DNA of 64,000 nt from Tubulanus polymorphus (GCF_964204645.1 NC_134031.1:10914088-10978087), one strand, 5' to 3'; shown: positions 104 to 24,657, numbered from the stretch's first letter. Numbers and translations: made by a program. Notes: generated from the letters alone by a model not told the origin.

Positions 104-715
104 TTATTTTATAAATTTATATTCATAGCGAAATTGTAGTCTCAGTAATAATTTTGAACCTTTATTATTCTTTAATTTATTCATATATTCATCATGTAAT
201 TCAGTAGGTATAATTTGATTTTATTCAAATGATTGTTGCATAGATTTTCTATCTCTATTGTAGAATAAAACTAGAAATCTTATATTCTCCCTAAAGTCTT
301 TAACAATTGAATTATATTTTTGATTTAAAACCCATGTTGTTATCCCAAAATGTCTCCCAGAGAAAGCTAAGTAACATAACTCACTTTCTCTCACTTTTGA
401 ATCATGTAAATTAGCGCAATCATCTACAATGAATAATGTATTTGATCCTTTATAAGTATCAATTGCTATTTTTATGCAATTATCTAAATTTTCTTTTACT
501 GTTTTAGGATCTAATATAATAAACTTTTTTATTTTAACTATATCTCTATTATATGTTTTATTCATTTCATAAGTAGGACAGAATAATATTATATTATCAA
601 AATGATTCTTATAAATAGTTTCTAACAAATCTAATATGAAATGTGTTTTACCACAGTTTGTTACCCCAGTAACTAACATATTATGCGGTTCAAATATAAA
701 TAAATCTTTATTCAT
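104..715 (-). pseudogene. A32/FtsK-like DNA packaging ATPase (element 1), in-frame stop at 221-223
   Basis: Walker A GVTNCGKT, Walker B FIVDD, A32-type SGRH motif. The frame continues past the stop to 104, matching the element-2 C-terminus. Confidence 0.88.
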
Positions 716-1550: not shown

Positions 1551-1607
1551 CCACAGTTTGTTACCCCAGTAACTAACATATTATGCGGTTCAAATATAAA
1601 TAAATCT

Positions 1608-2700
1608 TTATTCATTTATTCTTTTAATTTTACTAGATAAAATCCATTCATTAAATTTATCATCATATCCTTTATATTTCACCAAAGAATACTTTTTTCC
1701 TTTAAGAGTTTTTGTTTTCAATACTTTTTCTATTTTGTATTCTATTTCATCTGGATTTGGTACAAGTGATAATTCTTGTTCATAGAAATAACCTAATATT
1801 TCTTCATCTTTTAGATCTTCTAGTTTATAAACAAATGGTTTAGTTAATATTATCTTTTTAATCTTGAATATTTCTTTTGTAAAATTTGGGGTATAACCTT
1901 TATAAAATGTTTTTTCTATATTTAGATATTCTAACGTGTTGTCCAATTTTAGATTTAGGTTCTCCAAAATCATGTGTAACAAACGCACCATATAAATTAT
2001 TCCAAACTGTTTCCAAATTATCTTCTTTTCTAGCTTGTATAGGTTTCATATTTATAGAACTATGTTTAGAATTATTATAACCTTTCACCAAATCATCTAA
2101 CACATCGATATATTCATATGTTTCATTAGCAGTAAAATATTTCCACATTCTAGTTTTCAATGTTTTATTAAATCTTTCTTTAATAGATGCTTTTTTATCT
2201 GAGTGTGTTGAAAAATATTCTACATCGTTATCAGATAATAGTTTTTTGAAATGTTTGTTATAAAATTCCTTACCTTCATCAAATTGTATCTTATCTGGAA
2301 TAGCTTCTTTAAATATTGATTTAAAAGCATTTGTCACTTCTATACCAGTTTTATTTTTGATTGGAATTGACCATGCGTATCTACTGAATATGTCTATAAC
2401 ATTTAATATCCAGAAATGTCCTTTGTTGTGTTTTTCTAAGTTCTTCATGTCAATTAAATCTGCTTGCCATTGTTGATCGATATATGAAACCATAACTTTT
2501 CTTGTTAAATAAGTTTTATCCATTTTCTTGTGGATTTGATATGTTGGTTGATTTTGTAACCATAATCTTAGTTCACTATATTTTATATTACCATTTTCAT
2601 TATCAGATTTAATTTTATTCCATAATTCTGAAACGTTAGAATACGATACTTCACTTTCTGGGTTGTAATATAACTCTCTTAAATATTGTTCTTTTTTCAT
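1608..2700 (-). pseudogene. rve integrase with chromodomain (element 1, copy B), frameshift at ~1910
   Basis: WQADLIDM, DEGKEF and ERFNKTLK motifs. ORFs 1900-2700 and 1608-1991 join across an A/T-run frameshift. Confidence 0.9.
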
Positions 2701-2706
2701 CTTATT

Positions 2707-3075
2707 TTAATCCATTAATAATAATTTAGATTTAGTTTCAATGACTTTATGATTTGACTTATTTTCTGGTATGATAGGTTTATTATCATTGGAATAATCT
2801 TTATCATCAGATTTGAATTTTGATTTATACATTACACCGGATAATATAATAATTGTGATTAACCCAATTGTAATATATAAGTAATTATTTCTTCCACTAT
2901 TAGAAGAATTAGATGGGTTATTATTTGAATCAATAACAGATAATTTCTGTGATTCATTTATATCAGTTAATTTCTTTTTCTTAGCTTTTTTTAATTCTGA
3001 AGATCTTTTACCTAATTCCTTTGCCCACTGTATTTGTTTCTCAGATCTAGGCTTTTTCCTAACGCCATCACTCAT
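2707..3075 (-). CDS. Small basic protein with one TM helix (homologue of 9591-9974)
   Basis: Lys-rich N-terminus, hydrophobic YITIGLITIIILSGVMY, TAAATG start. Confidence 0.7.
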   Translation of the reverse strand: MSDGVRKKPRSEKQIQWAKELGKRSSELKKAKKKKLTDINESQKLSVIDSNNNPSNSSNSGRNNYLYITIGLITIIILSGVMYKSKFKSDDKDYSNDNKPIIPENKSNHKVIETKSKLLLMD

Positions 3076-3136
3076 TTATTTTAGTTAATTTTTGTTCTGG
3101 TTCATTTTCTGTTTCGACGTTTGGTTGTAGTACATC

Positions 3137-3676
3137 TTATTCGTTCTTACCTGATTTATATTCCATAGGTTTGATATTCGGAAATGTTATGACGCCAGTA
3201 GAAATTAATGTCATAACCGATCCTAATTGGAATGAAGCATATCCAACCCATTTTTGTAATTCAGTCATAACTAAGTAGTCATTTTTCAAATAACTATATA
3301 ATTTATTTTCATCATCAATTGGTATTAACTGGTTACATAACTTAGAATAACATTTGACAATACCATCTGAAATAGAATCATTTATTCTAGCTAATCTAGC
3401 TTCTTCATAAATCTTAAAATATTTTATTACTTTATCTGGTTTCATAGCATCTAATTCTTGAAAAGTAATGGTCTTAGTTAAAAATTGTTTACACTTTCCG
3501 CTAGCAATTAATAGTTCAAGATGGTGTTTACAATATAAGTAGTATTCATAATCTATATTGCTATTAACTTGAATATTATTTTCAATTTTGGTTGGAATAT
3601 CCTTATTATCACTAATACCTAAATCATCTAATGTTTTTTCAATATCAATACTATTCTTACTCGATTTCTTTGACAT
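3137..3676 (-). CDS. Conserved Polinton hypothetical protein (homologue of 8996-9598)
   Basis: Highly similar to the element-2 ORF, stops earlier, TAAATG start. Confidence 0.7.
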   Translation of the reverse strand: MSKKSSKNSIDIEKTLDDLGISDNKDIPTKIENNIQVNSNIDYEYYLYCKHHLELLIASGKCKQFLTKTITFQELDAMKPDKVIKYFKIYEEARLARINDSISDGIVKCYSKLCNQLIPIDDENKLYSYLKNDYLVMTELQKWVGYASFQLGSVMTLISTGVITFPNIKPMEYKSGKNE

Positions 3677-4245
3677 TTATATTGGAGAAATTTAATAAGA
3701 AAAATATTATAAGTATTATAAAATTATACTAGTCTCTCTTTAGGTTAAGACTAAATTGACTAGGTTAGTTAAAGTTAAAGAATTTCTATTCAAATCTTTT
3801 CAAAATCTATTCAATCAAATGTCAATTAGAATTACCAAAAGAAAATATTAAAAATATAATAGAATTCACTAGCAGTTGAAGTTATTGTTTTTTATTATAT
3901 TTTATTTAAATTAGGATTTAATATCTCACTACTATTGTCTATCTATTAGGAGCAGTAATTATAACTGTCCAGATAAGTCATTTCGGATTCTCGATAATAA
4001 ATCCTAAAACTGAAAATAAATTCAAAGAAACGACTGGTGGAAATACTATTTCATAAACACATATATTTTATTCTACAATCATTAACGATGTCCACATTCC
4101 AAGCCGCTCGGCAGCCGAGCGGTAAGGTATGCGCGGAATGCGGAAATCAATAAAGTATAATACAACATCTGTCACTGTGTGTGACATTAACAACAGCTGA
4201 ATGACGCAATTGAAATTCCGGCAAACGTAATATGAATATTTTAAG

Positions 4246-5955: not shown

Positions 5956-6980
5956 CAAGAAAATTAATTTTAGAAAATTATTTGACGCCTGCGAAAAAAA
6001 TGTAGAATTTCTGGGCTAAGCTAATGTGGAATTGCAAATTTGAAATCGAAGTTTTAAGAAATTTGGGGAATGATGAGATTTGGCGATTGGGTAGATGATA
6101 CAGGTCTTCGACTCTAGTAGTAGTTTAAATTTTTTTTAATGAAAATTCTCAATAATTGATCGCGAACTTGCGACCGACTTCATTTACTTATGCCTCTAAG
6201 CTGGTCTGCAACTTCATAGCCTCCATGGTTGAAGAGAGAGCTCTTCTGATGTCTGCTTCATCATGACTTCGAGCATATCGTGTGGCCTAGCCAGCCGGCC
6301 CGGGCCACGGGTTTGGCTGTCACTCGATATCCTAGAGTTGAGTCTGGGTGGGTTGAGGTAGACATTGTCATTTAAAATAACATGCTTATGTTGTTCTGTA
6401 TGAATTACCCGTGTGTCATGTATGTTGTATTAATTTATTTTAAAATTTGTATTTATTGAATTTGGGAATTTTATCCCGGAATTTCAATGTAATAAGGATC
6501 AATAAAGAATTGAATTGAATTGTCACCTAATTCACATGCCATCAGAGGACGCGGAGCCGTATATGACAGCTATGCTATTATAAATTGCTAATTTCACGAA
6601 ACCTGCATACTCCTAATATCAAACATATTTTCTAAAACGTTTGAATATTGAAATTATATGTTTACACATTTTCATATTGACCGCTTGTAGCCGCTGATGA
6701 AATTCACGCCGGCCCTACACACATCGTAAATAGCTTCGTCATTCCACCGGCATGCCCACGTCAGGGTCTGACTTTTATATCAGACTTCCAAATCGTGTAT
6801 ACATCCGCCATTTAACCGAATAATCCGATTTACTTATCATTTCTATTTATGCCTGCCGCTTCTGATATAATCATACATCCTTCACTATTACAATACGTCT
6901 TCTAATGATATTCAATGCAATATAACATTTCGACGTTCAAATATAGGTCATTACATAATCACAGGAAGCCATTCTACATC

Positions 6981-7769
6981 AGTAATAGGGATTTAGTTGT
7001 TCTATACCAAAGGTCGAAAGGTCGAGCCCGAGAAATTTTCCAAAATGTTAAAATAATAATAATTTCTACTTGAATTAGTCGCGTACACTCCTAATTCAAG
7101 TAGAAATTATTATTATTTTAACATTTGGAAAATTTATCAACCTCAACCTTTCGACCTTTGATATAGAACAACTAAATCCCTATTACTCTATCTAATCACA
7201 AGTCTCATAATTTACAAGCCTCAACATGTTGAGTATTGCGTATTACATGTTGATTCTAGAACAACCCATCTAGAAAACTACATTAGCCAATCACAGTTGA
7301 GTATTACGCTAGCCAATCACAGTTGAGTATTTCCAGCCAATCACAGTTGAGTATTTTACTATTAATCTATCCAATCACAGTTGAGTATTTCCAACCAATC
7401 ACAGTTGAGTATTTTACTATTAATCTATCCAATCACAGTTGAGTATTACTCTATCCAATCACAGTTGAGTATTCCCTATTACACTAGCCAATCACAAGCC
7501 TCATAATTTACAAGTCTCAACACGCAGCTGGGTTTTCCCCACTGTTGAGTAGTATAAATAGGTGGGACTCACACGCGGTAGGACTCATACGTGGCGGCGG
7601 GACGCGTTGAGAGGTAAGTGTTATGTTCAATTTTAATAAAAAATATAGTATTAAAATGGAAGCAAATAAGTACTACTGTCCAACATGTAATATCGATATA
7701 GATAAATCCCAAAAAGCAAGACACAATAAAACTAAAACACATTTAGAGAATAAATTGAAACTAGAATAT
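6981..7769 (+). repeat. Left TIR of element 2; first 207 bp (6981-7187) form an imperfect hairpin
   Basis: Reverse complement of 23869-24657 (one mismatch seen near 7364). Confidence 0.95.
7287..7619 (+). promoter_or_regulatory. TIR-borne Pol II-type promoter: CCAAT array, TATA box, 5' splice donor
   Basis: Seven CCAATCACAGTTGAGTATT units plus an eighth CCAAT, TATAAATA at 7553-7560, AG|GTAAGT at 7612-7619; mirrored at ~24019-24351 upstream of pPolB. Confidence 0.65.
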
Positions 7770-7892: not shown

Positions 7893-8018
7893 GCCTATAT
7901 ACATTCCATGTAAAGAGCTATGGAATTAATCTATAAATTCACAGCTGTTACAGCTGTTACTATGACGCTGAGATATTATAAAATGTTAACCAATTTAGTA
8001 AAAAAATACGTATAATAA

Positions 8019-8691
8019 ATGGAACCAGAACAACCACAAACTATCAATATTACAAATAACACTGGCGTTATAAACATATATTACAAGAAGTGTTCTAAAT
8101 GTGAATTAAATAAATCATTAACAGAATTTAGTAAGCGTAAGATTAGCAAAGATGGTTTTCAATATTACTGTAAAACTTGCATTAAACTATATACCAAACA
8201 ATATCGAGAAGATAATAGAGAATCTTATAATGATTATGACAGAATATATGAGAGAAAGATATCAAACAGATCTTAATTTTAGATTGAAACAATGTTTACG
8301 GTCTAGATTAACACAATTATTTAACAAAGAAACATATTCAGAAACACTATCTAATTTATTGGGTTGTTCAGATGAATTTCTCAAATCATGGATTATATTT
8401 CAATTCGATGATAAAATGAATATAGATAATTATGGGGATTATTACCATATTGATCACGTGTTACCAATATCTAAATTTAACATGAATGATGAATACAATA
8501 AAAAACTTATTTGGGGTTGGAAAAATTTAAGGCCTTTAGAAAAGAAAGAAAATCAAACCAAATCTAATAAACTAGATTTACAGTTATATTTAGAACAGTT
8601 AACAAAAGCAAAGAAATTTATTGATCAATGGAATAATAATCCAAATAATGAACAATACGTTGAGGAATTTGATATCAAGGATCCGAAATGA
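8019..8691 (+). pseudogene. Zn-ribbon plus HNH-like endonuclease, frameshift at ~8240
   Basis: KKCSKC..CKTC ribbon, then YHIDHVLPIS..WKNLRPL..EN..KSNK; resembles HNH nucleases of large DNA viruses. Confidence 0.7.
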
Positions 8692-8995
8692 CTTATCTGG
8701 ACAGTTATAGTTACTGCTCCTAATAGATAGACAATAGTAGTGAGATATCAAATAGAATTTAAATAAAATATAATAAAAAAAACAATAACTTCAACTAGCT
8801 AGTGAATTCTATTATATTTTTAATATTTTCTTTTCAAAAAGAGAATACTTTATATTTTGAATAGATCCGAATAGAAATTCTTTAAATTCAAATAGCTAGT
8901 ATCAGTAGTCAATACTAGAATTCTTTAGCTTTAACTAGCTAGTATCATTTGAAGAATACTTATAATATTTTTTTTGCTTTTTTTCTCTAATATAA

Positions 8996-9598
8996 ATGTC
9001 AAAGAAATCTAATAAGAATAGTATTGATATTGAAAAAACATTAGATGATTTAGGTATTAGTGATAATAAAGATACAGTTGTTTCTAATTCTATTCAAGTT
9101 AATAACAATATAGATTATGAATACTATTTATATTGTAAGCATCATCTTGAATTATTAATTGCTGGCGGGAAATCTAAGGACTTCTTAGGAAAAATAATAA
9201 CTTTTCAAGAACTAGACTCTATGAAACCCGATAAAGTAATAAAATATTTTAAGATTTATGAAGAGGCAAGATTAGCTAGAATAAACGACTCTATAAGTGA
9301 TGGTATTGTCAAATGTTATTCTAAGTTATGTAACCAGTTAATACCAATTGATGATGAAAATAAATTATATAATGATTTGAAAAATGACTATTTAGTTATG
9401 ACTGAATTACAAAAATGGGTCGGTTATGCTTCATTCCAATTAGGATCGGTTATGACATTAATTTCTACTGGAGTTATAACATTTTCGAACATCAAACCTA
9501 TGGAATATAAATCAGGTAAGAACGAAACAGATATACTACAACAAAACGTCGAAACAGAAAATGAATCAGAACAAAAATTAACTAAAATAAATGAGTGA
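8996..9598 (+). CDS. Conserved Polinton hypothetical protein
   Basis: Intact 200-aa ORF with a homologue in element 1. Confidence 0.72.
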   Translation: MSKKSNKNSIDIEKTLDDLGISDNKDTVVSNSIQVNNNIDYEYYLYCKHHLELLIAGGKSKDFLGKIITFQELDSMKPDKVIKYFKIYEEARLARINDSISDGIVKCYSKLCNQLIPIDDENKLYNDLKNDYLVMTELQKWVGYASFQLGSVMTLISTGVITFSNIKPMEYKSGKNETDILQQNVETENESEQKLTKINE

Positions 9599-9974
9599 TG
9601 GAGTTAAGAAAAAGGCTAGATCCGAGAAACAAATTAAATGGGCAAGAGAATTAGGTAAAAGATCATCAGAATTAAAAAAAGCTAAGAAAAAGAAATTAAC
9701 TGATATAAATGAATCAGAGACTTTATCTGATGGTGCCGTACGGCACCCACATGGTGGTATTGATTCAAATAATAATCCATCTAATTCTTCTAATGCTGGA
9801 AGTAATTATAAATTATATATTACAATTGGATTAGTAACAGTTATTATATTATCCGGCGTAATATATAAATCAAAATTCAAATCTGATGATAAAGATGATT
9901 CCAATGACAATAAACCTATCATACCCGAAAATAAGTCAAATGAAAATAAATCTAAAATATTATTAATGGATTAA
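9591..9974 (+). CDS. Small basic single-TM protein
   Basis: 127 aa, hydrophobic LYITIGLVTVIILSGVIY, homologue in element 1. Confidence 0.7.
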   Translation: MSDGVKKKARSEKQIKWARELGKRSSELKKAKKKKLTDINESETLSDGAVRHPHGGIDSNNNPSNSSNAGSNYKLYITIGLVTVIILSGVIYKSKFKSDDKDDSNDNKPIIPENKSNENKSKILLMD

Positions 9975-9977
9975 AAT

Positions 9978-11061
9978 ATGATGAAAAAAGAACAATATTT
10001 GAGAGATTTATATTATAACCCAGAAAGTGAAGTTTCATATTCAAGTGTTTCAGAATTATGGAATAAAATTAAATCTGATAAAGAAAAAATAAAATATAGT
10101 GAATTAAAATCATGGTTACAAAATCAACCAACATATCAAATCCACAAGAAAATGGATAAAAAATATTTAACAAGAAAAGTTATGGTTTCATATATTGACC
10201 AACAATGGCAAGCTGATTTAATTGATATGAAAAACTTAGAAGAATATAACAAAGAATATTTTTGGATACTAAATGTTATAGATATATTCAGTAGATACGC
10301 ATGGAGTATCCCGATTAAAAATAAAACTGGTATAGAAGTTACAAATTCTTTCAAATTAATATTTAAAGAAACTATCCCAGATAAAATACAATTTGATGAA
10401 GGTAAAGAATTTTATAACAAACATTTTAAAAAACTATTATCTGATAACGATGTAGAATATTTTTCAACACATTCAGATAAAAAAGCATCCGTTATAGAAA
10501 GATTTAATAAAACATTGAAAACTAGAATGTGGAACCACTGCTAATGAAACATATAAATATATCAATGTGTTAGATGATTTAGTTAAAGGTTATAATAATT
10601 CTAAACATAGTTCTATAAATATGAAACCTATACAAGCTAGAAAAGAAGAAAATTCAGAAATAGTTTGGAATAATTTATATGGAGCATTTGTTACACATGA
10701 TTTTGGAGAACCTAAATTTAAAATAGGACAACATGTTAGAATTTCTAAATATCGAAAAACATTTTATAAAGGTTATACCCCAAATTTTACTGAAGAAATA
10801 TTCAAGATTAAAAAGATAATATTAACTAAATCATTTGTTTATAAACTAGAAGATCTAAAAGATGAAGAAATATTAGGTTATTTCTATGAACAAGAATTAT
10901 CATTAGTACCAAATCCAGATGAAATAGAATACAAAATAGAAAAGGTATTGAAAACAAAAACTCTTAAAGGAAAAAAGTATTCTTTGGTGAAATATAAAGG
11001 ATATGATGATAAATTTAATGAATGGATTTTATCTAGTAAAATTAAAAGAATAAATGAATAA
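9978..11061 (+). pseudogene. rve integrase with C-terminal chromodomain, frameshift at ~10535
   Basis: DDE motifs as above. TGGAACCACTGC replaces TGGAAATATTTTACTGC seen in element-1 copy B. Confidence 0.92.
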
Positions 11062-11669
11062 AGATTTATTTATATTTGAACCACATAATATGTTAGTTAC
11101 TGGAGTTACAAATTGTGGTAAAACACACTTCATATTAGACTTGTTAGAAACTATTTATAAGAATCATTTTGATAATATAATATTATTCTGTCCTACTTAT
11201 GAAATGAATAAAACATATAATAGAGACATAGTTAAGGAAGATAAAAAAGTTTATTATATTAGATCCTAAAACAGTAAAAGAAAATTTAGATAATTGTATA
11301 AAAATTGCATTAGATATTTATAAAGGATCTAATACATTATTTATTATTGATGATTGCGCAAATTTACATGATTCAAAAGTTAGAGAAAGTGAGTTATGTT
11401 ATTTAGCTTTCTCTGGTAGACATTTTGGGATAACAACATGGGTTTTAAATCAGAAATATAATTCAATTGTGAAAGACTTTAGGGAGAATATAAGATTTCT
11501 AGTTTTATTCTACAACAAACATAGAAAATCTATGCAACAATCATTGGAAGAAAATCAAATTATACCTACTGAATTACATGATGAATATATGAATAAATTA
11601 AAAAATAATAAAGGTTCCAAATTACTTATGAGATTACAATTTCCATATGAATATAAATTTATAAAATAA
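11054..11669 (+). pseudogene. A32-like packaging ATPase, frameshift at ~11245
   Basis: GVTNCGKT, IIDD and SGRH motifs; extra A in an A-run. Confidence 0.9.
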
Positions 11670-11685
11670 AATCCTAATTCAAAAT

Positions 11686-12063
11686 ATTATAGAATTCACT
11701 GTATACTAATGGATGAGTGGATGAATTGGATGAATTGGATGAATTGGATGAGTGGATGAATGGATGAGTGTAATAATATATATATTTTACTTTTTAACAC
11801 ATAAATTGGAAGAATAGTATGAGTATAAATATAATATTTATATTCTTTATTAAATTTAACACAATATATATATATTATTAAAATAATATTTAAATATAGT
11901 ATAAAATTGATAAAATAACTTCAAATCAAACTCTTACTGTTTAAAAAATAAAAAACATATGTAAATTATATATTATTACACTCTTCCACTCTTCCACTCT
12001 TCCAACTCATCCAACTCATCCAACTCATCCATTCATCCATCAATATACAGTGAATTCTATAAT
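11686..12063. repeat. Inverted-repeat cassette between the convergent gene blocks
   Basis: ATTATAGAATTCACTGTAT...ATACAGTGAATTCTATAAT; ~100-bp arms made of GGATGA(A/G)T(T) units. Confidence 0.85.
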
Positions 12064-12067
12064 CTTT

Positions 12068-13099
12068 TTAATTTTCATTTTCATATTTTTCTTTAAGCTT
12101 ATTGTATTCTAAATATATATCCCTTTGCATTTTCTTTGGTATAATTCCTAAATAATTCTCGAGTTTATATTTCCTGAATGTTTCTCTTGAAAATATTTTT
12201 GGAATATAATTTTCGATTTCAGTTTTAGATGGATGTTTATTTAAAAATTCTCTAAAATCATCATATTTAAGTTCAAATAAGTTCATTGCATAAGTAACAT
12301 TTGGTTTAAAGTTATCTAACTTTTTCAATATGGTAACTATATCATTACTCAATAAATAATCTATAAATGTTTTTCTATACCACCGATAATCTAATATATT
12401 CTTATTATTAAATTTTGGATTTATAACTGTTGGATTTTCTATTACATTATCTGTACCAATATGTTTAATTGAGTATTTATGATTCAATTGTTTATCATAT
12501 ATTACATATTCTTTACATTTTTCACACCAAGATTTAAATACTTGTATTGCATGGGCTGAATCATTTCCACCTTTTGTTTTTAATTTATAATGTTTTGCCC
12601 AATTAGCCTTTGTTATACATTCATTACAGAAGGCACAATAATTCTGATCCTCTTTGCATTTATCTTTATATATATTGGCATATGTTTTTACTAATTGTAA
12701 AATATGTTCATCTTTTTTGATGTGTAATAAATAATCATTATAATTATCAAAATCTTCTTCACAATACATACATCTAATGTTATCTTTTGGTTGAACATTT
12801 GATTTTTCTATTTTAGGTTCAATATTATATTCTATTTTTGTTTCAATCTTATCATCATTCGATGTAGAAGGTATAACATTATCTTCTATTTTATATTCAA
12901 TATCATTCTTATCTTCTATTTTAGGTTCAATATTATCTTCTATTTTTGTTTCAATATTCTTATCTATTTTACTTATTCTATATTTGAATTGATTAAAGTA
13001 ATCTCCAAAATACTTACTGTATTCATCATAAGGTAATATTTAATATATATCTGATATCATTTCACTTGGAGATTGTATTTCATATATTCCACCTTCCAT
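12068..13099 (-). pseudogene. Zinc-finger protein with IE(T/P)KIED repeats, frameshift at ~13040
   Basis: CxxC..H..H motifs. The frame of 12068-12769 stays open upstream to ~13040; TAAATG start at 13099. Confidence 0.6.
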
Positions 13100-13131
13100 T
13101 TAATATAAGATTTTTTATTAAAGTTAAAATT

Positions 13132-14379
13132 TTAATACATAACACTATCTAATTGTGAATTTACAATATTTAATTGCGCGTCAGATATAATATAAATGTG
13201 CATTTTAAAATTTTTGATTCCTTTTTTCTTTGTTATGAATAATTGTATTCCATCTTTTGTATTTTGTAGTTTTTTCCCAGAACCATGTAATGAATTATCT
13301 TCAGTTGTTCTAAAATCTAACCATAATGCATATTTATTACCGGTATAATAATCAATTTGATTAATGTTACAATTTTCAAATGATTTCACTTTTTCATTCA
13401 TAAAATGTTTTTTAATTTCTACCCATTGATCAATCATTCTCATTCCTTGACAGAATATTTTATTCGCTATTCCTTCGATAGTTATTTCTACTTTTGTTAT
13501 TTCGGGATTATAATAATTATCAACATTTATTGCACCATTAGTATACGTTCCAATGGTAAAAAATATTAATATACCTTTAATAGATCTTCTAGGAAAGTTA
13601 ATATTCTCATTAATTATTTCATCATTTGCATTAATAGTTACAGTTTTAAATTTATCAATATAATCATATAATAATGAAAACCCTTGATTATATTTAGTTT
13701 GAATTATACTTGAAATATTTTCATCAGTTACTGTATCATATTCTAAACATATATTCGATAATTTATAACTCATATCTTTAACAACACTAGATAATACAAT
13801 TTCATTTACAGGAGCAAGTGTTATCTCAAATATAATATCTTCTTGAATTGCGTATTTATATAAAGGTGCATTATTATTTATCAATTCAAAGTCTAATGGA
13901 ATTTTATATTTGCTTCCATATATACTTTTTATCAATTTATCTACATCATTTGTTAATATTGCGCTATTAGCTTCTGATCTTAATTTATTTTGGTTTTCTG
14001 ATTGAATTCCTTGAAATATCATATTATTTCTATTTTCTTTAGTTAACCATAAATCTTTATAATGCATAAATAAATTATAATCATCTAATGAGAAAACTGT
14101 TTCTGGACCAATCTTTATTGTTAACTTTTTAATCAAATATCTTCCAACATTATCAACAACATAATTATTATTATTACCGATTACTTTTATATCAGCTGAT
14201 AAATAAATACTATTTGGAACATAAAAAGTATTTTGTGTTAATCTAGGAATTCTAACATATAAAGTTTCATCGGGATTAATATTTGAAGGGTTATGAGTAA
14301 TTATATGATGTGATCTTTCTGCTTTAATAGCATTAGATATTCTATGATTCTTCGAAGGACTTATATAACTCCCACTCAT
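13132..14379 (-). CDS. Major capsid protein (double jelly-roll, hexon-like), intact
   Basis: 415 aa, beta-rich; size, context and sequence pattern match Polinton-like MCPs. Confidence 0.8.
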   Translation of the reverse strand: MSGSYISPSKNHRISNAIKAERSHHIITHNPSNINPDETLYVRIPRLTQNTFYVPNSIYLSADIKVIGNNNNYVVDNVGRYLIKKLTIKIGPETVFSLDDYNLFMHYKDLWLTKENRNNMIFQGIQSENQNKLRSEANSAILTNDVDKLIKSIYGSKYKIPLDFELINNNAPLYKYAIQEDIIFEITLAPVNEIVLSSVVKDMSYKLSNICLEYDTVTDENISSIIQTKYNQGFSLLYDYIDKFKTVTINANDEIINENINFPRRSIKGILIFFTIGTYTNGAINVDNYYNPEITKVEITIEGIANKIFCQGMRMIDQWVEIKKHFMNEKVKSFENCNINQIDYYTGNKYALWLDFRTTEDNSLHGSGKKLQNTKDGIQLFITKKKGIKNFKMHIYIISDAQLNIVNSQLDSVMY

Positions 14380-14423
14380 TTATTTAACAAAAAAATTAAT
14401 TATTTATTTTTTGATATCATGGT

Positions 14424-15899
14424 TTACTTGATATTTTTTGATATCATATTCACTAACCCAAAAATAATTGCACTTACAACTGTAATTAAAAATAAAATAA
14501 TATGTTCAGCAGCAAAGTTAAGAATATTACCTGCAGATTTCAATATAAAACCAACAATTGAAGCAATAACTCCTGGTAAAGCTGCAGCAGATTTTTTAGA
14601 TAGTTCCCATAAATATTTTGCTAATTTCTTTAAACCATCTTTAACTTTATCTTGTATAGAATTATTACCTGGAGGTTTATCTGGTTTATTGGGAGTAGGT
14701 GTAGATTTCAAAGCATTTGATATTGCTAAACCAATTGTTGTAAATAACATAGTTACAGCTGTTAGAATTGAAAGAATTGTTATTCCTTCTAATTTAAATA
14801 ATAACTTTATTCTGTCTTTTAATGATATTTCAGAATTTGGTTTAATCAACAAATCTTTAAAAATAACTTTTAATCTATTTATATTATAATCATATGATTT
14901 TAATAATAATTTAATTTCTTCTTTTTGTAATTCTATGTTATATTCTAAATCATCAATTTCTTTTTCTAAATATGCATTTCTTTTTTTAAATTCAATTTCT
15001 TCAATAACTTTATTATCTCTATCTAATTTTAATTGTTCTATTTCTTTATTTTTATCAGTTCTTTCTTTTTCTAAAGTTCTAATTTTAAAATCTCTTATAC
15101 TTTTATCATGCGCAATTTTATCAGATGCAAGTCTTATACTAATAATTTCTCTAATTGCTTTATCAGAAAATATATCTAAATCTTCTAATTCTTGATCTGT
15201 TGCATCAAGTAACCCATTCGGTAAAAGTTTTTCAATTGGAACTTTATTTGATTTAAGTTTACTAGTTTTGGAAGTTATATTCTGTTCAGAAGTTGTTTCT
15301 GTTTCTAAATTATTATCGATTGTTTCAAATAATTCATTAATTCTTTGTTTAAATACTCTTTCATTTTTAATAATTTCTTCTTGTGTTACATCTTCTGGTT
15401 CATTACTATTTCTTATTCTTTTAATTCTAGATAGGTCTAACTTAAGCAAAGTTGATTCTGCTAATATTTTTTCTTGTTTTTTATAAGAGATATCAATATA
15501 ATAATCATCTTTCAAACGATAATAATATTCACCATCTAAAAACTTTAATTCTTGTACTAAAAGTCTAGCGCCTCTGGTATTGATATTATATCCAGATTTT
15601 TCAAATATAGGTTTGAAATTATAAATATATTCATTATATTTTTAATTTTGTTTTACTAAATCTGGATTTTCATTTTCAGGATTTATTCTCGATCTAGTTC
15701 TTCTATCAAATTCATCTGTTGATTGACCTTTAGAACCACTATCTGCTAAATTAGAATTATATGCTGATTCATCATCATTATCAATATTAGTTTCATTAAA
15801 TTAGTTTCATTTATTAGGTTGTGGTTCATCATCAATATATCCTTCATTATTATTTCCCATTTCTCCCATTTCATAATCTTCTCCACCTTCTACATCCAT
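14424..15899 (-). pseudogene. Coiled-coil protein with C-terminal hydrophobic/amphipathic helices; frameshift from a short duplication at ~15790-15810
   Basis: Acidic N-terminus from TAAATG at 15899, coiled coil, GITILSILTAV.. and AAALPGVIASIVGFIL.. segments. Confidence 0.65.
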
Positions 15900-15915
15900 T
15901 TACATAATAAAAAAA

Positions 15916-17304
15916 TTAAAATTTAAAATATAATATTCCTCCGATTACAATTCCTATACAAGTTATAGCTAATTTAGTATTTTCATGGGATTTATTATCA
16001 TCATTTAGTTTAATTATATCATGTTGAATTTTATCAGTTTTTATATCTTCTGATGTATTGTAATCTTTTATTTTAGAATCATTAACCAATTTAATATTCT
16101 CAGTTTTAGTTTCAGTTGATTGAATGTGTTTTTTATTTTTTTCACCTTCCATTAATTTTGGAGCAGTAATAATCTTTTTATTTATATCATTCAATCCAAA
16201 TGAATTATTTATTGTTGCAGTTTTAATTAGATTATTATAACCAATTATGTTTCCCATCTTTAGTACTAAATCATTAGAAATAATTAATAGATTAGGGCCT
16301 ATACAATAATTAAGTCTTACATGAGATTTATCTAAATAATTTTGATATCTTATAATGTTTTCTGGAATCGATCTATTTTTATCATTATGTATGGAATCTT
16401 CAAATAAAACTTTAAATTGTTTTTGTGTATCGAATGATGTATTCAAATTTCCAATTATTGGTGATCTTGTTTCAACTTGTGATCCTAGAATACAAATCAA
16501 ATAAGTTCTAATAGATTGATTTATTCTTTCTATACCTGATTTAGTAAAACCTTCACTATTTTCTAAAATAAAATATACCCAACCATTATTGTTTTCTTGT
16601 TTTAAATTATCATAAAATTTTGGTAATTTATTGAAATTTAATGTTTCTAAATCCTTTGTTTCTATTTTACCATAACCTAATTTTTTATTATAGATACTAT
16701 AAAAACTATTAGATGGTATAGGAAGTGCACAATATTCTGCAATCTTTCTAGGGCAAGGAAGTGATCTTATTGTTCCAGTTTTTGTTCTAAAATCAGAATT
16801 ATTTATATCTATATTAAATTCATTACAAATTTTATAAAACTTTGATAAATTAATATTATTATCTAATTCTTTAAAATATCTAGATCCTGGTAAAGCGCAC
16901 TCTAATTCATTTAATATTATTCTGATTTGAAAGTATGTATGAAATCTAAATAAACTTTGAATTAATTTATATTTAGAATTATTCAAATGATCATTCCAAC
17001 TAATTCCACATCCTGTTGTTGCACAATAAACAGCAAAATTTAATTGATTCTGCCAATACTTCATATTAGATTTTAATAACCATTGTTTTTCATCTTTCAA
17101 TTTTTTAAAATTAATTAAATATACATGAAATATATTTTCCATTTTTGCATTAAAATTATTAGTTTCAGTAACATAAATATATAAATCAATTAATGAATCT
17201 AAAACTTCATTTCTATATGTAATATCTTTATTAAAATCTATTGCTGGAATATTATATTTAATTGATTTATTATATTGGAAAGCTTTTGGAAAACTATCTA
17301 CCAT
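15916..17304 (-). CDS. Polinton-associated protein with C-terminal TM anchor
   Basis: Intact 462 aa, WQNQLNFAVYCATTGCGIS motif, hydrophobic C-terminus. Confidence 0.7.
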   Translation of the reverse strand: MVDSFPKAFQYNKSIKYNIPAIDFNKDITYRNEVLDSLIDLYIYVTETNNFNAKMENIFHVYLINFKKLKDEKQWLLKSNMKYWQNQLNFAVYCATTGCGISWNDHLNNSKYKLIQSLFRFHTYFQIRIILNELECALPGSRYFKELDNNINLSKFYKICNEFNIDINNSDFRTKTGTIRSLPCPRKIAEYCALPIPSNSFYSIYNKKLGYGKIETKDLETLNFNKLPKFYDNLKQENNNGWVYFILENSEGFTKSGIERINQSIRTYLICILGSQVETRSPIIGNLNTSFDTQKQFKVLFEDSIHNDKNRSIPENIIRYQNYLDKSHVRLNYCIGPNLLIISNDLVLKMGNIIGYNNLIKTATINNSFGLNDINKKIITAPKLMEGEKNKKHIQSTETKTENIKLVNDSKIKDYNTSEDIKTDKIQHDIIKLNDDNKSHENTKLAITCIGIVIGGILYFKF

Positions 17305-17321
17305 TTATATAATTAAAAAAA

Positions 17322-17756
17322 TTAATAATTTATTAATTCTTTTAATAATTTATCTTGTTCTTCAACTGTTATATGACCATTTAAACTTATTATATAATCT
17401 AGTGTGTTCTTTAATTTATTAATTTCTTTTATATTAGATTTTATTTTTTCTTTATTACTTTTTATATTTAATTTTGAACTTATACCAGTTAAAACACTTG
17501 AACTTAATCCTAATACACCAATTGATATAGCTAAAGGTGTTAATGGACTGAATATTGCTAAAAATGTTATTACAGAACTAATTGTAACCGAACCACTAAT
17601 AATAAGATAATATATAATTTTACTTTTTAAATATTTTTTCTTTTTTATCTTTAAGTCACTTTCAAATTCTAATATTTGTTTTTCTAAATATGTTTTTAAT
17701 TTAGTTTTATTTATATCATGAGGAATAATATCAATATTATCAACTTTATCTTCCAT
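17322..17756 (-). CDS. Two-TM membrane protein
   Basis: 144 aa, two adjacent hydrophobic helices flanked by basic segments. Confidence 0.68.
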   Translation of the reverse strand: MEDKVDNIDIIPHDINKTKLKTYLEKQILEFESDLKIKKKKYLKSKIIYYLIISGSVTISSVITFLAIFSPLTPLAISIGVLGLSSSVLTGISSKLNIKSNKEKIKSNIKEINKLKNTLDYIISLNGHITVEEQDKLLKELINY

Positions 17757-17775
17757 TTATTTAGAATAAAAATTA

Positions 17776-18198
17776 CTAATTAGTAAACTTATAAGCAATA
17801 AATATAACAATAACTGTTCCACCTAAAATCCATATTATTTCATATTTTTGTTGTTCTTCACTTGGGGTATAATAATCAGATAATTTAGGTTTGTATAGAT
17901 GTAATTTTTCTTTCTTTGTTACCGCGTTATATAAACTCATTGCATCATCAACTGATTGAAAATCTCTGTGTGAAATCTTCTGATCATATAATTCTTTATT
18001 GATGTAATCCATATAGTTTTGTCTCTTTTCTCTATATTCTTCTGCAGCTTTATTGTATTTCTCTAACGCTAAGTTATGTCTTCTTTGTTCTCCTAATGAA
18101 CTATTTTTATCAATATGTTTAAATAAATAACCACCACCAGTAAATGCTAAAGCGTTAACAATTGCCGATCCTATAATAGTTATAATTGCAGAAGCCAT
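17776..18198 (-). CDS. Membrane protein (hydrophobic N- and C-termini)
   Basis: 140 aa, MASAIITIIGSAIVNALAFTGGGYLF, C-terminal TM segment. Confidence 0.68.
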   Translation of the reverse strand: MASAIITIIGSAIVNALAFTGGGYLFKHIDKNSSLGEQRRHNLALEKYNKAAEEYREKRQNYMDYINKELYDQKISHRDFQSVDDAMSLYNAVTKKEKLHLYKPKLSDYYTPSEEQQKYEIIWILGGTVIVIFIAYKFTN

Positions 18199-18223
18199 TT
18201 ATTTAGCAAAAAAAATTATGCAT

Positions 18224-18445
18224 TTATATGGGAGGAATATATTTTTGTTTTTCCAAATAATCAATTGTTAAATTAGATAAAGTAACTGCTAATGTTAACT
18301 TTAAAATATCATTTATATCAAATCTATCAACATTAACACTTCCCATTTTGAATACTTTTTTTAATACCATTGAATAACCAACAGTTCAAACTGATAGTAA
18401 TGCTCCATTATATAATCCAGTTATTATCCACTTATTATCACTCAT
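18224..18445 (-). pseudogene. Small hydrophobic protein with internal TGA (absent from the ORF track)
   Basis: MSDNKWIITGLYNGALLSV*TVGYSMVLKK..DYLEKQKYIPP; TAAATG start; fills the gap in the gene array. Confidence 0.55.
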
Positions 18446-18787
18446 TTATTTATCAAAAAAATTACTATCATCAAAATATTTAGTTAACTTATTTATGATT
18501 AATTCAACATTTATTTCATTACTAGTTTTATGATTATCATATATTTTGGTTAATATGTTTTTAATATCTTCAATAATTCCATCTTCATTTAATTCATAAT
18601 ATTCTAAAGGTGATTTAATTAAATCAAATACTTTTTCTATATTATACTTTTCTTTATCAATCATTGACGCATTGTTAAATGATTTACTTTTTATATCAGT
18701 AATTACGTCATTTAGTTTAATTCTCATTTCTTTACCATGTTTAAAATCAAACCCAAAACATATACTCGGTCCAACAGTAATATTCAT
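18446..18787 (-). CDS. Hypothetical protein
   Basis: 113 aa, TAAATG start, tightly packed in the array. Confidence 0.6.
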   Translation of the reverse strand: MNITVGPSICFGFDFKHGKEMRIKLNDVITDIKSKSFNNASMIDKEKYNIEKVFDLIKSPLEYYELNEDGIIEDIKNILTKIYDNHKTSNEINVELIINKLTKYFDDSNFFDK

Positions 18788-18804
18788 TTATATAGTGAAA
18801 AAAA

Positions 18805-19563
18805 TTACTCTTTACATCTTATAACTAATTCATAAATTACAGGGAAATTATTTAAATCAATTAAGTATCCATTATGATTTCTAATTTCTAATCTAAAATT
18901 ATTAAAACTAGGAATGCATGGTTTGAAATCACATTCTGTTAAATTATAATTTATTTGCGTTCCAAATTCTTTAACATTTTTTAATGGTAAAATATTTAAT
19001 ATACTAGAATTACATGTTGTATCTTTAGTTGCTTCAAATGTTTTTGTTGGGTCAATTAAATTGCAATAAATATAAAAATGTGTAAAAGGTATTATATTTG
19101 AAATACCTTCTACGTTTACTGTAACAACATCTGGTTCAATTCCTAGCAATTTAGCTATAGGTTTTTTTACCATAAATGCATGTTGACTTTCATCAAATAC
19201 CTTTATTTTAATTCTATTTGAGCTATCACTTTTTATAAATCTTATTGAAAATTTATCATCTTTTCTAATTTTCAACCGTGCTCTACGATTAATTTCTTGA
19301 GATAATGTTTCTAAATTATATAATCCTGGTCTTAGAAATAGATGAAACCATTTATTTATATTTCTAATATGAATTAAAAAAGTATTATGTTCAATAGTTT
19401 TATTCGATATATTGTAAAAAGAATTACATAAACTTATATTTACTAATTTTAAATCAACACAATTCTTAAATTCTCTATCTAATTGAACTAGTAAATTATG
19501 TGATTTATAATTTGTAAGTTTTCTAGAATCAACAAATATTCTGTATTCTTTTAATTCCACCAT
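18805..19563 (-). CDS. Minor capsid (penton-like) protein
   Basis: IFVDSR, NSFYNIS, PGLY, IYCNLI and LEIRNHNGYLIDLN patterns typical of Polinton/virophage single jelly-roll pentons. Confidence 0.72.
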   Translation of the reverse strand: MVELKEYRIFVDSRKLTNYKSHNLLVQLDREFKNCVDLKLVNISLCNSFYNISNKTIEHNTFLIHIRNINKWFHLFLRPGLYNLETLSQEINRRARLKIRKDDKFSIRFIKSDSSNRIKIKVFDESQHAFMVKKPIAKLLGIEPDVVTVNVEGISNIIPFTHFYIYCNLIDPTKTFEATKDTTCNSSILNILPLKNVKEFGTQINYNLTECDFKPCIPSFNNFRLEIRNHNGYLIDLNNFPVIYELVIRCKE

Positions 19564-19580
19564 TTATTTTACATATTTTC

Positions 19581-19922
19581 TTATTCGAAATCTATTTCAT
19601 GGTGCCCTTTTTCATTCTTACCTTTATATATGAAATAGAAATCACCAGAATATAATTCTTCTAGATCTTCACTTGATAATCTATGAAATCTATCTGGTAA
19701 ATAAGTTCTGAATTTATATTTATTTCCTTTTAATCCTTCATATTCTAAATGAATTACTAATTTATCTCCATATTTATTAGTAATTGTTTCAATGTTAGTT
19801 ATTAAATATTTCTTGTGAATTGTTAACTCAGTTAGTTTTTTAAATTTATAATCTACAGATTTGACGCTTGAAGTATCTTTAATTCTATCTAAGAATTCAC
19901 TGTGTACTTGTTTACTCTCCAT
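19581..19922 (-). CDS. Small protein next to pPolB, possibly an OB-fold ssDNA-binding protein
   Basis: 113 aa, beta-rich (YLITNIETITNKYGDKLVIHL..TYLPDRF). Function inferred only. Confidence 0.45.
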   Translation of the reverse strand: MESKQVHSEFLDRIKDTSSVKSVDYKFKKLTELTIHKKYLITNIETITNKYGDKLVIHLEYEGLKGNKYKFRTYLPDRFHRLSSEDLEELYSGDFYFIYKGKNEKGHHEIDFE

Positions 19923-19950
19923 TTATTATACAAATTTTTATTGAAATTGA

Positions 19951-22900
19951 TTAACACGCTAGAATCCTTTTCATAATCTCATTTTCTTTTGTTTCTTCTC
20001 TTTTGAATTTTATATATTCATCTAAATTGCAACCATAGGCGACTGTGTGGATTCCATCATCTAAAATATATCTTTTATCATCAAATGGATTCAAACTTAT
20101 CTTCTCTATCTCTTCAATATACATTTCATGATCTTCAGATCTTAAACATTTCATCTTATGTTTTCTAACTTCTTCTTTGAATATACAATTGATGTAATCT
20201 TTAAAATGAATATTCTTTTCAACAACGCTTTTGGTAATTCCTTTTAACTTTTTAGCTTCATGTTCTTTAGTTTTATATGAATACATTTTAGATCTAATAC
20301 CTATGAACTCTATCATTTCTTCACCACCTAATTCATCCTTAAACTTCCCAGGAACTTTTTTATTATCATTGGTAAACAATTCATGATTTTTTGGATAGTT
20401 ACTGAAATCAAAATGGTGTTTTAATGTTTTTAAATCATCAGTTATGTTATCAGTTTTTATCTTTAATATGTAACTGTCAGTATCAAAATATAATATTTCT
20501 ATATGTTTTTCTCCAAAAAGTGGTTGTAATATATTATAATAGAATTCATACATTAGTAATTTTGATAATTCTAAAACTGAAGCGCCAACATAGATTGGTT
20601 TATTAAATTTCATAGACGTTCTCCTCATTTTAACTGCAGCTAAATTTTCATCAAATATTCTGTTACCAATGAACTTAGGATATGATTGTAAATGTCTAAT
20701 TCTTTTACCATTACTAACTAACTCAATATCATTTCTATTTCTAATATTTTCACAAGTCTTACCATAGAATGCATTATTCATTAGTTTGAAGAAATCTTTC
20801 TCAAAATCAGTTTTAGCTTCAGTTCTCTGTTTGGTGTTAAAATCTATATATTTTTCTAACCACTTCGATTGACTAAATGAAATATATCTATGTACTTTTT
20901 TTAGAACCATTCCTTGTTTTAGATAAAACTTCAACATTCTATAATGAACAACGTAATTATATTTATCTTCTTGAGTTACCATTAACTTTTCTGTATGAAT
21001 ATGATTTTCGGGTTTAATTCTTTTTTGGTAATTTGATAATTCTTCATGTTTAACAGTTTTATGTTCGGGACAATATGCTAGATTTCTAGATTTGAATTTA
21101 ATACGTTCAGGATATTCCAAGTCTACAACGAAGAAGTAACCAATATCTGAATCATCTGCAATATCTAGAATTCTTTTCTTCCAATCAAATTTATCAATTT
21201 GTAAAACTTCAGTTATTTCAAACATCCCATAAGGTTGTGGTTCCATCATTGCCCAACCATAAAGATTATTTGCATCTATGTATAATAATTTATATCCAGG
21301 ATTATCATTTACATTGAAATATCTATCACCCAATACACCTGAAACACCTCCTCTTATAGATTTTTCAAATAATAATAATTGATCTATATTTGTTAACAAA
21401 TCCATTTTTATATCTGTAAATTTTAAACCACAATCCCATGTTAATCCTGGTGATGAATAACAATGACAAGGATCAATGTTAAAATATTTTAGGTTTACAT
21501 CTCTAAACCTTTCAAATATATCAGTTAATAATAATACATCTGATTTTAAATATAAATCTACTAATTGACCATGATTTTCTATTTTGAAATGATTCCAAAT
21601 ATTCAATGTTCTATTATATACTTCATCTTTAACATATTCATTTTTTAATTCATCATAAAATTGTTCTTTTAATAATTAAGTTATGTTAAAATCATTATGT
21701 GATTTATAAAATGAATATGGAATTGCTCCTTTATATCTCATTAATTGAAAATCATCATTATTTGGGTAATGTTGCTTTAATATCTTTAATTCATCATCAA
21801 CTAATGATTTTGATAAGTTATCTAATGAACTATTTAAAAATCTATATGAATCTATAAATCTTAGACAACCAAATTGGAATGATATATAATTCTCAGATGT
21901 TTTAGCTAACATTCTAAATTTATAAGTTGGTATTTTATCTTTTGATCTATTTGAATTTAATATTTCTATTTCATTATTGATTTCTTCTATTTTATAGCAT
22001 AACTGTTTGATGAATAAATGTGCATCATATCCTGATAGATTATGAAATATAACTGGTACAAAGTTAATTTTCTTAGCTTGTAAGTTACAATTCTCATGCG
22101 CTGCACCTCTAAACTTTCCATTCAAATGATCATGGTCTCTTACTTTTTTATCTCTATAATTAAATATCTATTCACAATAATAACATTTATCTGAAAACTC
22201 AAATTCTTCTTTATCTTCTTCTGTCATAATTATTTCTTTATTTGTATTCAATAATTTACTAAATCTTATTTCATATTCAACTAATAAGTCACAAAAATGA
22301 TTAATAACATTTTCATTTCTGTAATCATAATATTCACTCTTAATTAGTTCTGGATAATTAGATTTAATATATAACCCGAAAGCTGCAGCTGATTGATGAA
22401 TCTTTTTAATTGTATTTGTTATTGGTGGTTCTTCTGAATAATCACTTTCATTAGAATTTAATTTCTTTCTCTTATAATATATTTCTTTTCTATCTTGATC
22501 AGTTAGTTCTTTATTTAATGATTCAAAATCTCCATATATTACAAATGGTACTTTATTTTTGTAATCATATTTTTTGAATTCTAATATTTTATCCTTTTCA
22601 TTTGGTAAAACTAATTTACAATAATCATGATTTTCACATAATTGTTTATGATTTAATAATGTACTTTCAGTTCTGAATTTATGTAAACATTTTCTACATA
22701 GATATATTTTATTATCAAAATCATTTTCTGATTTAAAAAATAAATCAATTCTTTTAATCCACATATAATGATTCTCATAATATAGTATATCTATAACATC
22801 ATTTGAATCATAATCTTTTGATAGGTATAAAGGTTCTAATGTATAATGTTTTATGTTGTTACCTTTTGTATTTGGTAATTTGATTAAATCAAATACATTT

Positions 22901-24015
22901 ATCTTTATATTATTATCTCTTTCTATTTTTGGGATGTCTTTAATTATAACAGGATACTTATCTATCTTATAATTATTTTCAAATGGTTTATAATGAGTTA
23001 ATCTAAAACTATGTGTAATATCTTCTGTTGGATGTAAACAACTTATTATAGCCCATAGAAAACATTTATCATCTTCATTTTGTACATTTATTACAGCATT
23101 AGTTTTAAATGGTAGTTTAATATAACTTGATGCTTCAATATCTGGTTCTTTATAATATGATAAATTATTTTCATCAATTGGTTTTGATTTAGTTAACTTA
23201 TTATATTTTGTGTTATAAACATGTAAAGTTATAAATATTATCTCATCAAATATTAAACCAGATCCTTCAAAATATTTCTCTTCTATTTTAGTTTTTACTT
23301 CATTATAACATTTATCTAATTTATCATCTATATGTTGTTTAGATATAATATGTTGTGAATGAGAATTTATATTATATATTGGTTTATCTTCAGATTTTAT
23401 GAATTTAACTTTAGAAGATATACTTATTTTAGGATATTCAACATCAGTTATTATTTTTATTATTTCTTTCATATTTTCTAAATGTTTTTTATTTTCTTCT
23501 AATGTTTTACCTTTATGAAATTTAAACTCGATAGCTGCTGGACCAATATCACTTTTAAATGCTTCGGTTATCTCTATATCTTTTTTATTATCTAATGAAT
23601 TAATATAATTTCTTACATCTTCCATGTATGGTCTTTTATTGTTTAATTTATTTTTTATTCTTTTAATTGTCTTCTGTTTCTTATCGTTATCATTATCAAA
23701 ATAATCTTCACCTAAAATATCATTATTCTTATTTCTAATATGACTTATAGATTTTAAATGTTCTTTATAATATCTTTTATCACTGAATGATTGATTACAT
23801 GTATCACATTTGTATGTTTCTTTTTCATCCTTTAATTCTTCTAATTTATTTTCTAATATATCATCTTCATATTCTAGTTTCAATTTATTCTCTAAATGTG
23901 TTTTAGTTTTGTTGTGTCTTGCTTTTTGGGATTTATCTATATCGATATTACATGTTGGACAGTAGTACTTATTTGCTTCCATTTTAATACTATATTTTTT
24001 ATTAAAATTGAACAT
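19951..24015 (-). pseudogene. Polinton-type family B DNA polymerase (~1350 aa), in-frame stops at 22168-22170 and 21676-21678
   Basis: Exo motifs (YGDFES, FHNLSGYD, YLKSDV) and Pol motifs (YIDANNLYG, KLMNNAFYGK, YFDTDS). The three ORFs share one frame. Confidence 0.95.
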
Positions 24016-24657
24016 AACACTTACCTCTCAACGCGTCCCGCCGCCACGTATGAGTCCTACCGCGTGTGAGTCCCACCTATTTATACTACTCAACAGTGGG
24101 GAAAACCCAGCTGCGTGTTGAGACTTGTAAATTATGAGGCTTGTGATTGGCTAGTGTAATAGGGAATACTCAACTGTGATTGGATAGAGTAATACTCAAC
24201 TGTGATTGGATAGATTAATAGTAAAATACTCAACTGTGATTGGTTGGAAATACTCAACTGTGATTGGATAGATAAATAGTAAAATACTCAACTGTGATTG
24301 GCTGGAAATACTCAACTGTGATTGGCTAGCGTAATACTCAACTGTGATTGGCTAATGTAGTTTTCTAGATGGGTTGTTCTAGAATCAACATGTAATACGC
24401 AATACTCAACATGTTGAGGCTTGTAAATTATGAGACTTGTGATTAGATAGAGTAATAGGGATTTAGTTGTTCTATATCAAAGGTCGAAAGGTTGAGGTTG
24501 ATAAATTTTCCAAATGTTAAAATAATAATAATTTCTACTTGAATTAGGAGTGTACGCGACTAATTCAAGTAGAAATTATTATTATTTTAACATTTTGGAA
24601 AATTTCTCGGGCTCGACCTTTCGACCTTTGGTATAGAACAACTAAATCCCTATTACT
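23869..24657 (-). repeat. Right TIR of element 2; hairpin at 24451-24657
   Basis: Inverted copy of 6981-7769. Confidence 0.95.

Follow-up and report, generated by a model that had tools for sequence, protein, structure and literature searches.

Results

A partly decayed Maverick/Polinton

The DNA analysed here is a 64,000-nucleotide stretch of Tubulanus polymorphus (NC_134031.1:10914088-10978087; the window, in what follows), in which positions 6981-24657 are a 17.7-kb Maverick/Polinton, partly decayed, with the hexamer TAAATG at 14 of its 16 gene starts. The terminal inverted repeats (TIRs) of the element are 789 nt long (6981..7769 on the plus strand and 23869..24657 on the minus strand), and left and right copies agree at 787 of 789 positions. 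The element is flanked by the target-site duplication (TSD) TACATC (6975..6980 on the plus strand, and again 24658-24663), a TSD of 6 bp being a hallmark of Mavericks/Polintons, and empty-site DNA contigs join 6974 to 24658, that is, both flanks without the element. GC content is 23% in the element and 37% in the flanks. Many diverged copies of the family are spread in the genome: 5726 of 19803 contigs (run X1) are at least 99% alike, and the rest less.

The genes form two converging blocks. On the plus strand lie a gene similar to HNH/endonuclease VII, split over two frames (8016..8691), a conserved Maverick open reading frame (ORF) of 200 aa (8993..9598), a basic ORF of 127 aa with a hydrophobic stretch (9588..9974), an interrupted rve integrase with a chromodomain (9978..11061; PF00665, E 3e-9) and an A32-like packaging ATPase, likewise split over two frames (11051..11669), which matched PF04665 in a profile search of the element's frames. 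An imperfect inverted repeat with GGATGAAT-type repeats separates the blocks (11661..12080); as the same sequence terminates both of them, these arrays (11661-12080) are a candidate shared 3'-end signal.

The minus strand carries a variable zinc-finger-like gene with an early stop in the window copy (12068..13102), the major capsid protein (MCP) gene (13132..14382), an interrupted coiled-coil/membrane gene (14424..15902), a conserved Maverick gene of 462 aa that we take to be the one labelled PZ (15916..17307), four small genes starting at 17756, 18198, 18445 and 18787 (17322..18790), a probable minor capsid gene of 252 aa (18805..19566), a gene for a 113-aa protein (19581..19925) and pPolB in three in-frame pieces (19951..23985). 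In the window copy, interruptions affect integrase, ATPase, pPolB, HNH and three further genes but leave the capsid gene whole. Its 415-aa product is a major capsid protein with a predicted double jelly roll (model pLDDT 86.7; Foldseek E 1e-16 to the PBCV-1 and iridovirus capsids), and it had no relative in IMG/VR or among phages and no match in the PDB by sequence. The 252-aa protein, for which a single jelly roll would be expected, matches PBCV-1 P1v1 weakly (profile E 0.14), and its single-sequence model (pLDDT 32) gave no usable fold. The 113-aa protein possibly binds single-stranded DNA, as its nearest named cluster, at 0.85, carries the phi29 SSB family on 44% of its members. The pPolB is 42% identical over 458 aa to a protein of locus L024 that itself matches PF03175 at 6e-19, and its middle piece matches PF03175 directly (E 5e-4).

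No match to RNA polymerase, TBP, TFIIB, VLTF or protease families was obtained with 19 ORFs and 37 further frames of the element; inside the TIRs, every stretch longer than about 280 nt contains an open frame of 55 codons. An adenain-type cysteine protease was not found in these frames either, and we assign the element neither to the adintoviruses (sensu Starrett et al.) nor to the Lavidaviridae.

TAAATG at the gene starts

Every gene listed above other than integrase and pPolB has TAAATG overlapping its start codon. These 14 sites, and three more in a partial second copy of the left gene block (715, 3075 and 3676), had been reported in an initial annotation of this DNA, and all were found as described, together with the two exceptions: the integrase (9978) starts in the context TAAAAT-ATG, and the likely start of pPolB (23982) reads TAAAATG, with a T at -12 (A of ATG = +1). 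TAA precedes 14 of the 16 starts as against 23 of 383 other ATGs on the sense strand (Fisher p 2.8e-14), and 23 of 232 when the comparison is made with other first ATGs after a stop (p 2.3e-11). Of the 14 starts, four (8019, 13099, 15899 and 18445) head ORFs that are soon interrupted in the window copy, and the last three of them are recognised as starts mainly by position and by intact counterparts in related loci (L001, L004 and L009).

A T lies at -12 in 13 of the 14 TAAATG starts of the window. The T tract that had been described upstream of many starts is clear before eight; the other six have instead an A-rich run that ends about at the -12 T. Among orthologues, an A-rich upstream run is present in six of six ATPase starts and capsid starts are mostly T-rich, but a division of the genes into A-run (intermediate-like) and T-run (late-like) promoters was unstable for other orthologues and was abandoned.

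The motif is a clade trait

Relatives were collected by capsid alignment, taking the best 80 of 126 confirmed metagenome loci and two loci from genome bins. Capsid starts were examined in 57 of them, two of which had no nearby ATG. Among the 14 loci whose MCP is at least 50% identical, TAAATG opens the capsid gene in 13, as against one of the 41 more distant loci, where capsid starts mostly have a purine at -3. When all ORFs of at least 100 aa are counted, with out-of-frame ATGs as internal controls, TAA precedes 54 of 64 starts in 16 clade loci (39 of 932 internal ATGs) and 7 of 323 in the other 66 loci. These distant Mavericks (L017, L019, L023-L028 and others) share homologous capsid, ATPase, integrase, pPolB and small genes with the clade and differ from it in mostly having a purine at -3 and in lacking TAAATG.

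Base composition does not account for the difference. The seven AT-rich loci among the 66 have TAA at 1 of 22 starts, whereas clade members L005 and L006, at 40-44% GC, keep the motif at five of seven starts and at none of 76 internal ATGs. In an MCP tree (a quick version with 68 rows, from which the short rows L057, L061, L066, L070, L077 and L079 were dropped), the 13 rows of the TAA clade fall within one branch free of non-TAA loci, with an SH-aLRT of 94 that is below the starred level of the tool. Several clade loci are near-copies (L001/L002, L007/L008/L011 and L013/L015).

A locus of another Polinton lineage, L086 (1-9034), has TAAATG at seven of seven starts, pPolB included, and at none of 95 internal ATGs. 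It has 38% GC, a probable protease-integrase fusion and a divergent gene pair 34 nt apart. This locus suggests that Polintons acquired the TAAATG promoter type repeatedly, by separate origins or by transfer. In locus L068 (721-1891), placed in a distant capsid branch outside the clade, TAAATG stands at both of two starts.

Three other observations concern relatives. In clade member L009, a deoxynucleoside kinase gene (PF01712, 10340-10981) starts at TAAATG. In L025 (9967-13596), also a locus of Maverick type, a helicase-like AAA protein takes the usual place of pPolB. Clade capsids were also found deposited as hypothetical proteins of Bartonella assemblies (cluster P0045), probably through contamination by host DNA.

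A second fixed element upstream of the hexamer

In the relatives alone, 49 of 54 distinct starts carry a T at -12, compared with 11 of 34 internal TAAATG sites (p 1.3e-8). Position -13 is a T in 42 of the 54 (p 2.5e-6 when set beside internal sites). For vaccinia late promoters the published consensus is T-N9-TAAATG (PMC11423596, Table 1), a second source describes a T conserved ten bases upstream of TAAAT with weaker T's around it (PMC11980589), and in salmon gill poxvirus TAAATG has been marked before many conserved genes (PMC4542343). Both the clade motif and the late promoter of vaccinia and other orthopoxviruses, as described in these sources, are short and AT-rich, with TAAAT(G) over the start codon and a T about one helical turn upstream (PMC11980589, PMC11423596, PMC5294985). 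They differ in use, since the motif precedes nearly all clade genes and the vaccinia late promoter is that of one kinetic class. Unlike a poxvirus, the element encodes no recognisable RNA polymerase, and the likeness is one of sequence. At that level the signal is real, strong and conserved in the clade, and it matches the poxvirus late promoter in two elements.

Divergent gene pairs

Ten divergent gene pairs were found in the clade, seven of them with TAAATG at both ends, and in six of these seven the starts are at most 30 nt apart: the spacers measure 19 nt in L001, 24 in L007 and L008, 28 in L013 and L015, 30 in L014 and 72 in L009. The remaining three include an overlap in the window that is probably no gene pair. 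Spacers of 19-30 nt leave no room for leaders or for core promoters of RNA polymerase II (Pol II), and they speak against explaining the motif by stop-start coupling, by a poly(A) signal or by a splice acceptor. The splice-acceptor model, with a donor in the TIR, was rejected also on sequence grounds, as the 19 nt preceding each TAAATG start contain no YAG, and at 7 of the 14 the preceding 40 nt contain none either.

The inverted repeats and the two exceptional genes

The left TIR comprises a terminal hairpin, eight copies of CCAAT (7287-7488), TATAAA at 7553, a donor-like GTAAGT at 7614 and the first codons of pPolB; the right TIR has the same Pol II-like layout and faces pPolB. It had been proposed that structural genes are transcribed by a helper virus polymerase while pPolB uses the TIR promoter. 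The Pol II-like layout and the two exceptions in the window speak for such a two-tier programme, but the case for it is weak, because relatives use TAAATG at the integrase and probably at pPolB. The integrase starts at TAAATG in three of four related loci with a readable start (L001, L003 and L009, not L004). What is probably the N-terminus of pPolB begins with TAAATG in L008 and L009 (by weak homology, E about 1e-3), and so does the whole pPolB of L086. Non-structural genes (HNH, ATPase and the SSB-like gene) also start at TAAATG. The starts of integrase and probable pPolB in relatives, the T at -12 of the window pPolB and the seven of seven starts of L086 thus indicate that the motif is element-wide. 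A Pol II tier would be at most an addition to it, perhaps a nuclear route for pPolB from the TIR promoter in the window family.

Some details of the TIRs may be recorded here. The terminus (6981-7188) is a hairpin of roughly 207 nt that is 90% self-complementary. A possible 35-nt GT-AG intron runs from the donor-like site to the likely pPolB start (24024-23990 on the minus strand, 7614-7648 on the plus strand). At 7623-7892, the beginning of pPolB in the left TIR runs into a copy of the 3' end of the HNH gene, which makes a short chimeric ORF.

Discussion

The view of TAAATG as a poxvirus-type late initiator, put forward in the initial annotation, is strengthened by our results: the motif extends over the clade without depending on AT content, it has a second fixed element at -12/-13, and it flanks divergent pairs 19-30 nt apart. 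We give a probability of roughly 60% to the reading that the clade genes are transcribed by the late machinery of a poxvirus-type helper, with a start in the AAA and a poly(A) leader made by slippage. The T at about -12, together with TAAATG fused to the ATG, would then be a late promoter, used not by host Pol II but by the RNA polymerase of a cytoplasmic virus of poxvirus type that infects the same cell. The helper machinery would initiate in the AAA and add an untemplated 5' poly(A) leader, as described for vaccinia and yeast linear elements (PMC6211774). Such a leader would supply both the leader itself and the purine at -3 that the T at -3 denies. The integrated copy would be largely silent until infection by the helper, with perhaps some nuclear pPolB from the Pol II-like TIR promoter, and the element would afterwards replicate and be packaged at the helper's expense, like mavirus with CroV (Cafeteria roenbergensis virus). 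More tentatively, and with a probability somewhat below even, we propose that this widespread, integrase-bearing Maverick clade consists of endogenous satellites in animals whose helpers are poxviruses or pox-like viruses, that is, germline provirophages switched on by the helper late machinery. Host protection would be a further step beyond satellite replication.

Several points weigh against this helper-dependent reading. TAAAN initiators and slippage are also found in yeast linear plasmids that have their own polymerase (PMC6211774), so that the motif names no helper family. The T of the clade peaks at -12 (T-N8-TAAATG, 91%; 78% for -13), one base closer than in the T-N9 of vaccinia, and L086 has T at -12 at just four of seven starts. 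Counts over the clade overstate independence because several loci are near-copies. The TIR resembles a Pol II promoter, and since the window exceptions are the two genes of nuclear transposition in a family that is multi-copy and spread, the element may need no helper to spread. The early terminator T5NT is depleted in clade ORFs (ratio 0.33-0.45), but this was dropped as evidence because T runs are depleted in all groups and the effect is unspecific. Finally, a motif scan of IMG/VR (at least 120 stretches, 80 of them with flanks) yielded no helper with the same start signature, full loci having TAA at 36% of starts or fewer among the matches listed.

Other searches for a helper gave little to follow. 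Four giant-virus bins had no clear excess of the motif over a reversed control (21 against 16, 10 against 7, 21 against 8 and 72 against 96), and the cargo genes considered as a clue, the deoxynucleoside kinase of L009 and the HNH gene of L006, returned unnamed or generic matches. The giant-virus-like contig L083 was rejected as a lead, with one TAAATG start among 14 ORFs listed.

The alternative that survives best, though we consider it unlikely, is an autonomous nuclear programme, in which an element-encoded or host factor brings Pol II to the clade motif and the likeness to poxviruses is convergent. Pol II promoters carry their box about 30 nt before the start site, a geometry that a motif fused to ATG, or two promoters within 19-30 nt, does not fit; T at -3 is a poor Kozak context, and distant Mavericks mostly have a purine there. 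No TBP, TFIIB or VLTF match was obtained in the element's frames, where a very divergent one could escape, and the ORFs at 8996 and 9591 and the zinc-finger gene, with no assigned function, could accommodate such a factor. Consistent with autonomy, hallmark genes of coral polintoviruses are reported to be expressed in untreated samples (PMC11131425).

Rather less probable is that the window family is a relic: the ancestor of the clade would have been a helper-dependent satellite, and the family would now be a nuclear transposon driven by its TIR promoter, with the late promoters disused. The many diverged copies, the several interrupted genes of the window copy, the Pol II-like TIR and the exceptional status of integrase and pPolB would all suit this history. 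Against disuse stand a window copy that keeps 14 of 14 motifs, T at -12 in 13 of them and an intact capsid gene, and the retention of the motif across relatives at only about 50% capsid identity.

A post-transcriptional signal is more improbable still. TAA could be an in-frame stop that serves reinitiation or insulation, or the hexamer could be the poly(A) signal of an upstream gene lying over the next ATG; indeed, the sequence is AATAAA or TATAAA at 53 of 63 sites and ATTAAA at two more, and the TAA at 18445 does terminate the preceding gene. That site is the only one of the 14 in the window at which TAA ends a real upstream ORF, which counts against stop-start coupling, an explanation that had been named as possible. 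The triplet before the ATG is TAA in 63 cases, TGA in one and TAG in none, yet TGA or TAG close 20 of 76 genes and TAA the other 56 (p 2e-5). The variants TTTAAATG, GCTAAATG, TCTAAATG and CATAAATG exist while the register with the ATG is fixed, in the divergent pairs no gene on the same strand precedes the motif, which leaves nothing to polyadenylate, and the fixed T at -12 would be left without explanation. Nor is AATAAA avoided inside ORFs, with observed/expected ratios of 1.01 in the window and 0.99 in close relatives; the ratios of 0.85 in farther clade loci and 0.78 in AT-rich non-clade loci make this a weak contrast overall. That the motif is a compositional artefact of an element with 23% GC and 52 TAAATG sites on both strands, an objection foreseen in the initial annotation, is practically negligible, being refuted by the comparison with internal ATGs, by the enrichment in relatives at 40-44% GC, by its absence from AT-rich non-clade Mavericks (1 of 22) and by TAA at no more than 36% of starts in 80 viral loci chosen for containing the motif.

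A close functional parallel to the helper-dependent reading is mavirus, which has promoters of the CroV late type (10.1101/068312). Like the clade elements, mavirus is integrated, carries pPolB and an rve integrase, has promoters that match a large virus's late motif and has no polymerase for its own transcription (10.1101/068312). It differs in its protist host, its mimivirid helper, its late motif TCTA (PMC5294985) and an activation shown experimentally, whereas the clade has a Maverick-type gene set, a pox-type motif and a probable animal host. Polinton-like viruses (PLVs) have been found in occlusion bodies of entomopoxviruses, two of them adjoining the mavpol 2 capsid clade (PMC11296320). 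According to the same source, these PLVs (AHEV_PLV1/2, CBEV_PLV1 and Ca_PLV1) differ from the clade in their protease of adenovirus type, and an rve integrase is not reported for them. The word "promoter" is absent from the text and supplement of that paper (PMC11296320), as it is from the main text of the adintovirus paper, of the coral polintovirus paper (PMC11131425) and of a 2026 preprint on such viruses. We found no published report of TAAATG promoters in Polintons in a literature in which subscription journals were thinly covered.

To our knowledge, the yeast plasmids pGKL1/2 have neither capsid nor integrase. They resemble the proposed system in being linear and cytoplasmic, with TAAAN initiators and 5' poly(A) leaders made by slippage, and differ from it in encoding their own RNA polymerase and capping enzyme and in an early-type upstream element (PMC6211774).

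Promoter mimicry in the style of virophages is already known, and here it would occur in Mavericks whose hosts are probably animals. Such Mavericks may be autonomous viruses, transposons or hyperparasites, and the regulation of their genes has barely been described. The start signature divides Mavericks into Kozak-type and poxvirus-promoter-type lineages, which makes the choice between these life styles testable, and it predicts the helper family to seek; the share of T-N8/9-TAAATG starts can be computed over all known Polintons, including those associated with entomopoxviruses. If the helper-dependent reading is true, the mavirus model of endogenous virophages extends to animals, the clade could serve as a heritable antiviral defence, and it would mark hosts that harbour undescribed pox-like viruses, several of the loci coming from environmental metagenomes.

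Other features of the window

Outside the element, the left gene block is present a second time, incomplete and inverted, at 68..4002 on the minus strand, with the TAAATG sites at 715, 3075 and 3676 mentioned above. A solo palindrome at 4244-4440 resembles the first 209 nt of the TIR (about 75-79% alike) and is possibly a non-autonomous relic. The flanks of the element hold repeats and retroelement-like frames. Frames similar to reverse transcriptase and GIY-YIG at 27081-28470 and 58000-58586 suggest Penelope-like elements. Tandem arrays with units of 154 nt and 31 nt occupy 38-40 kb and 51.8-52.4 kb.

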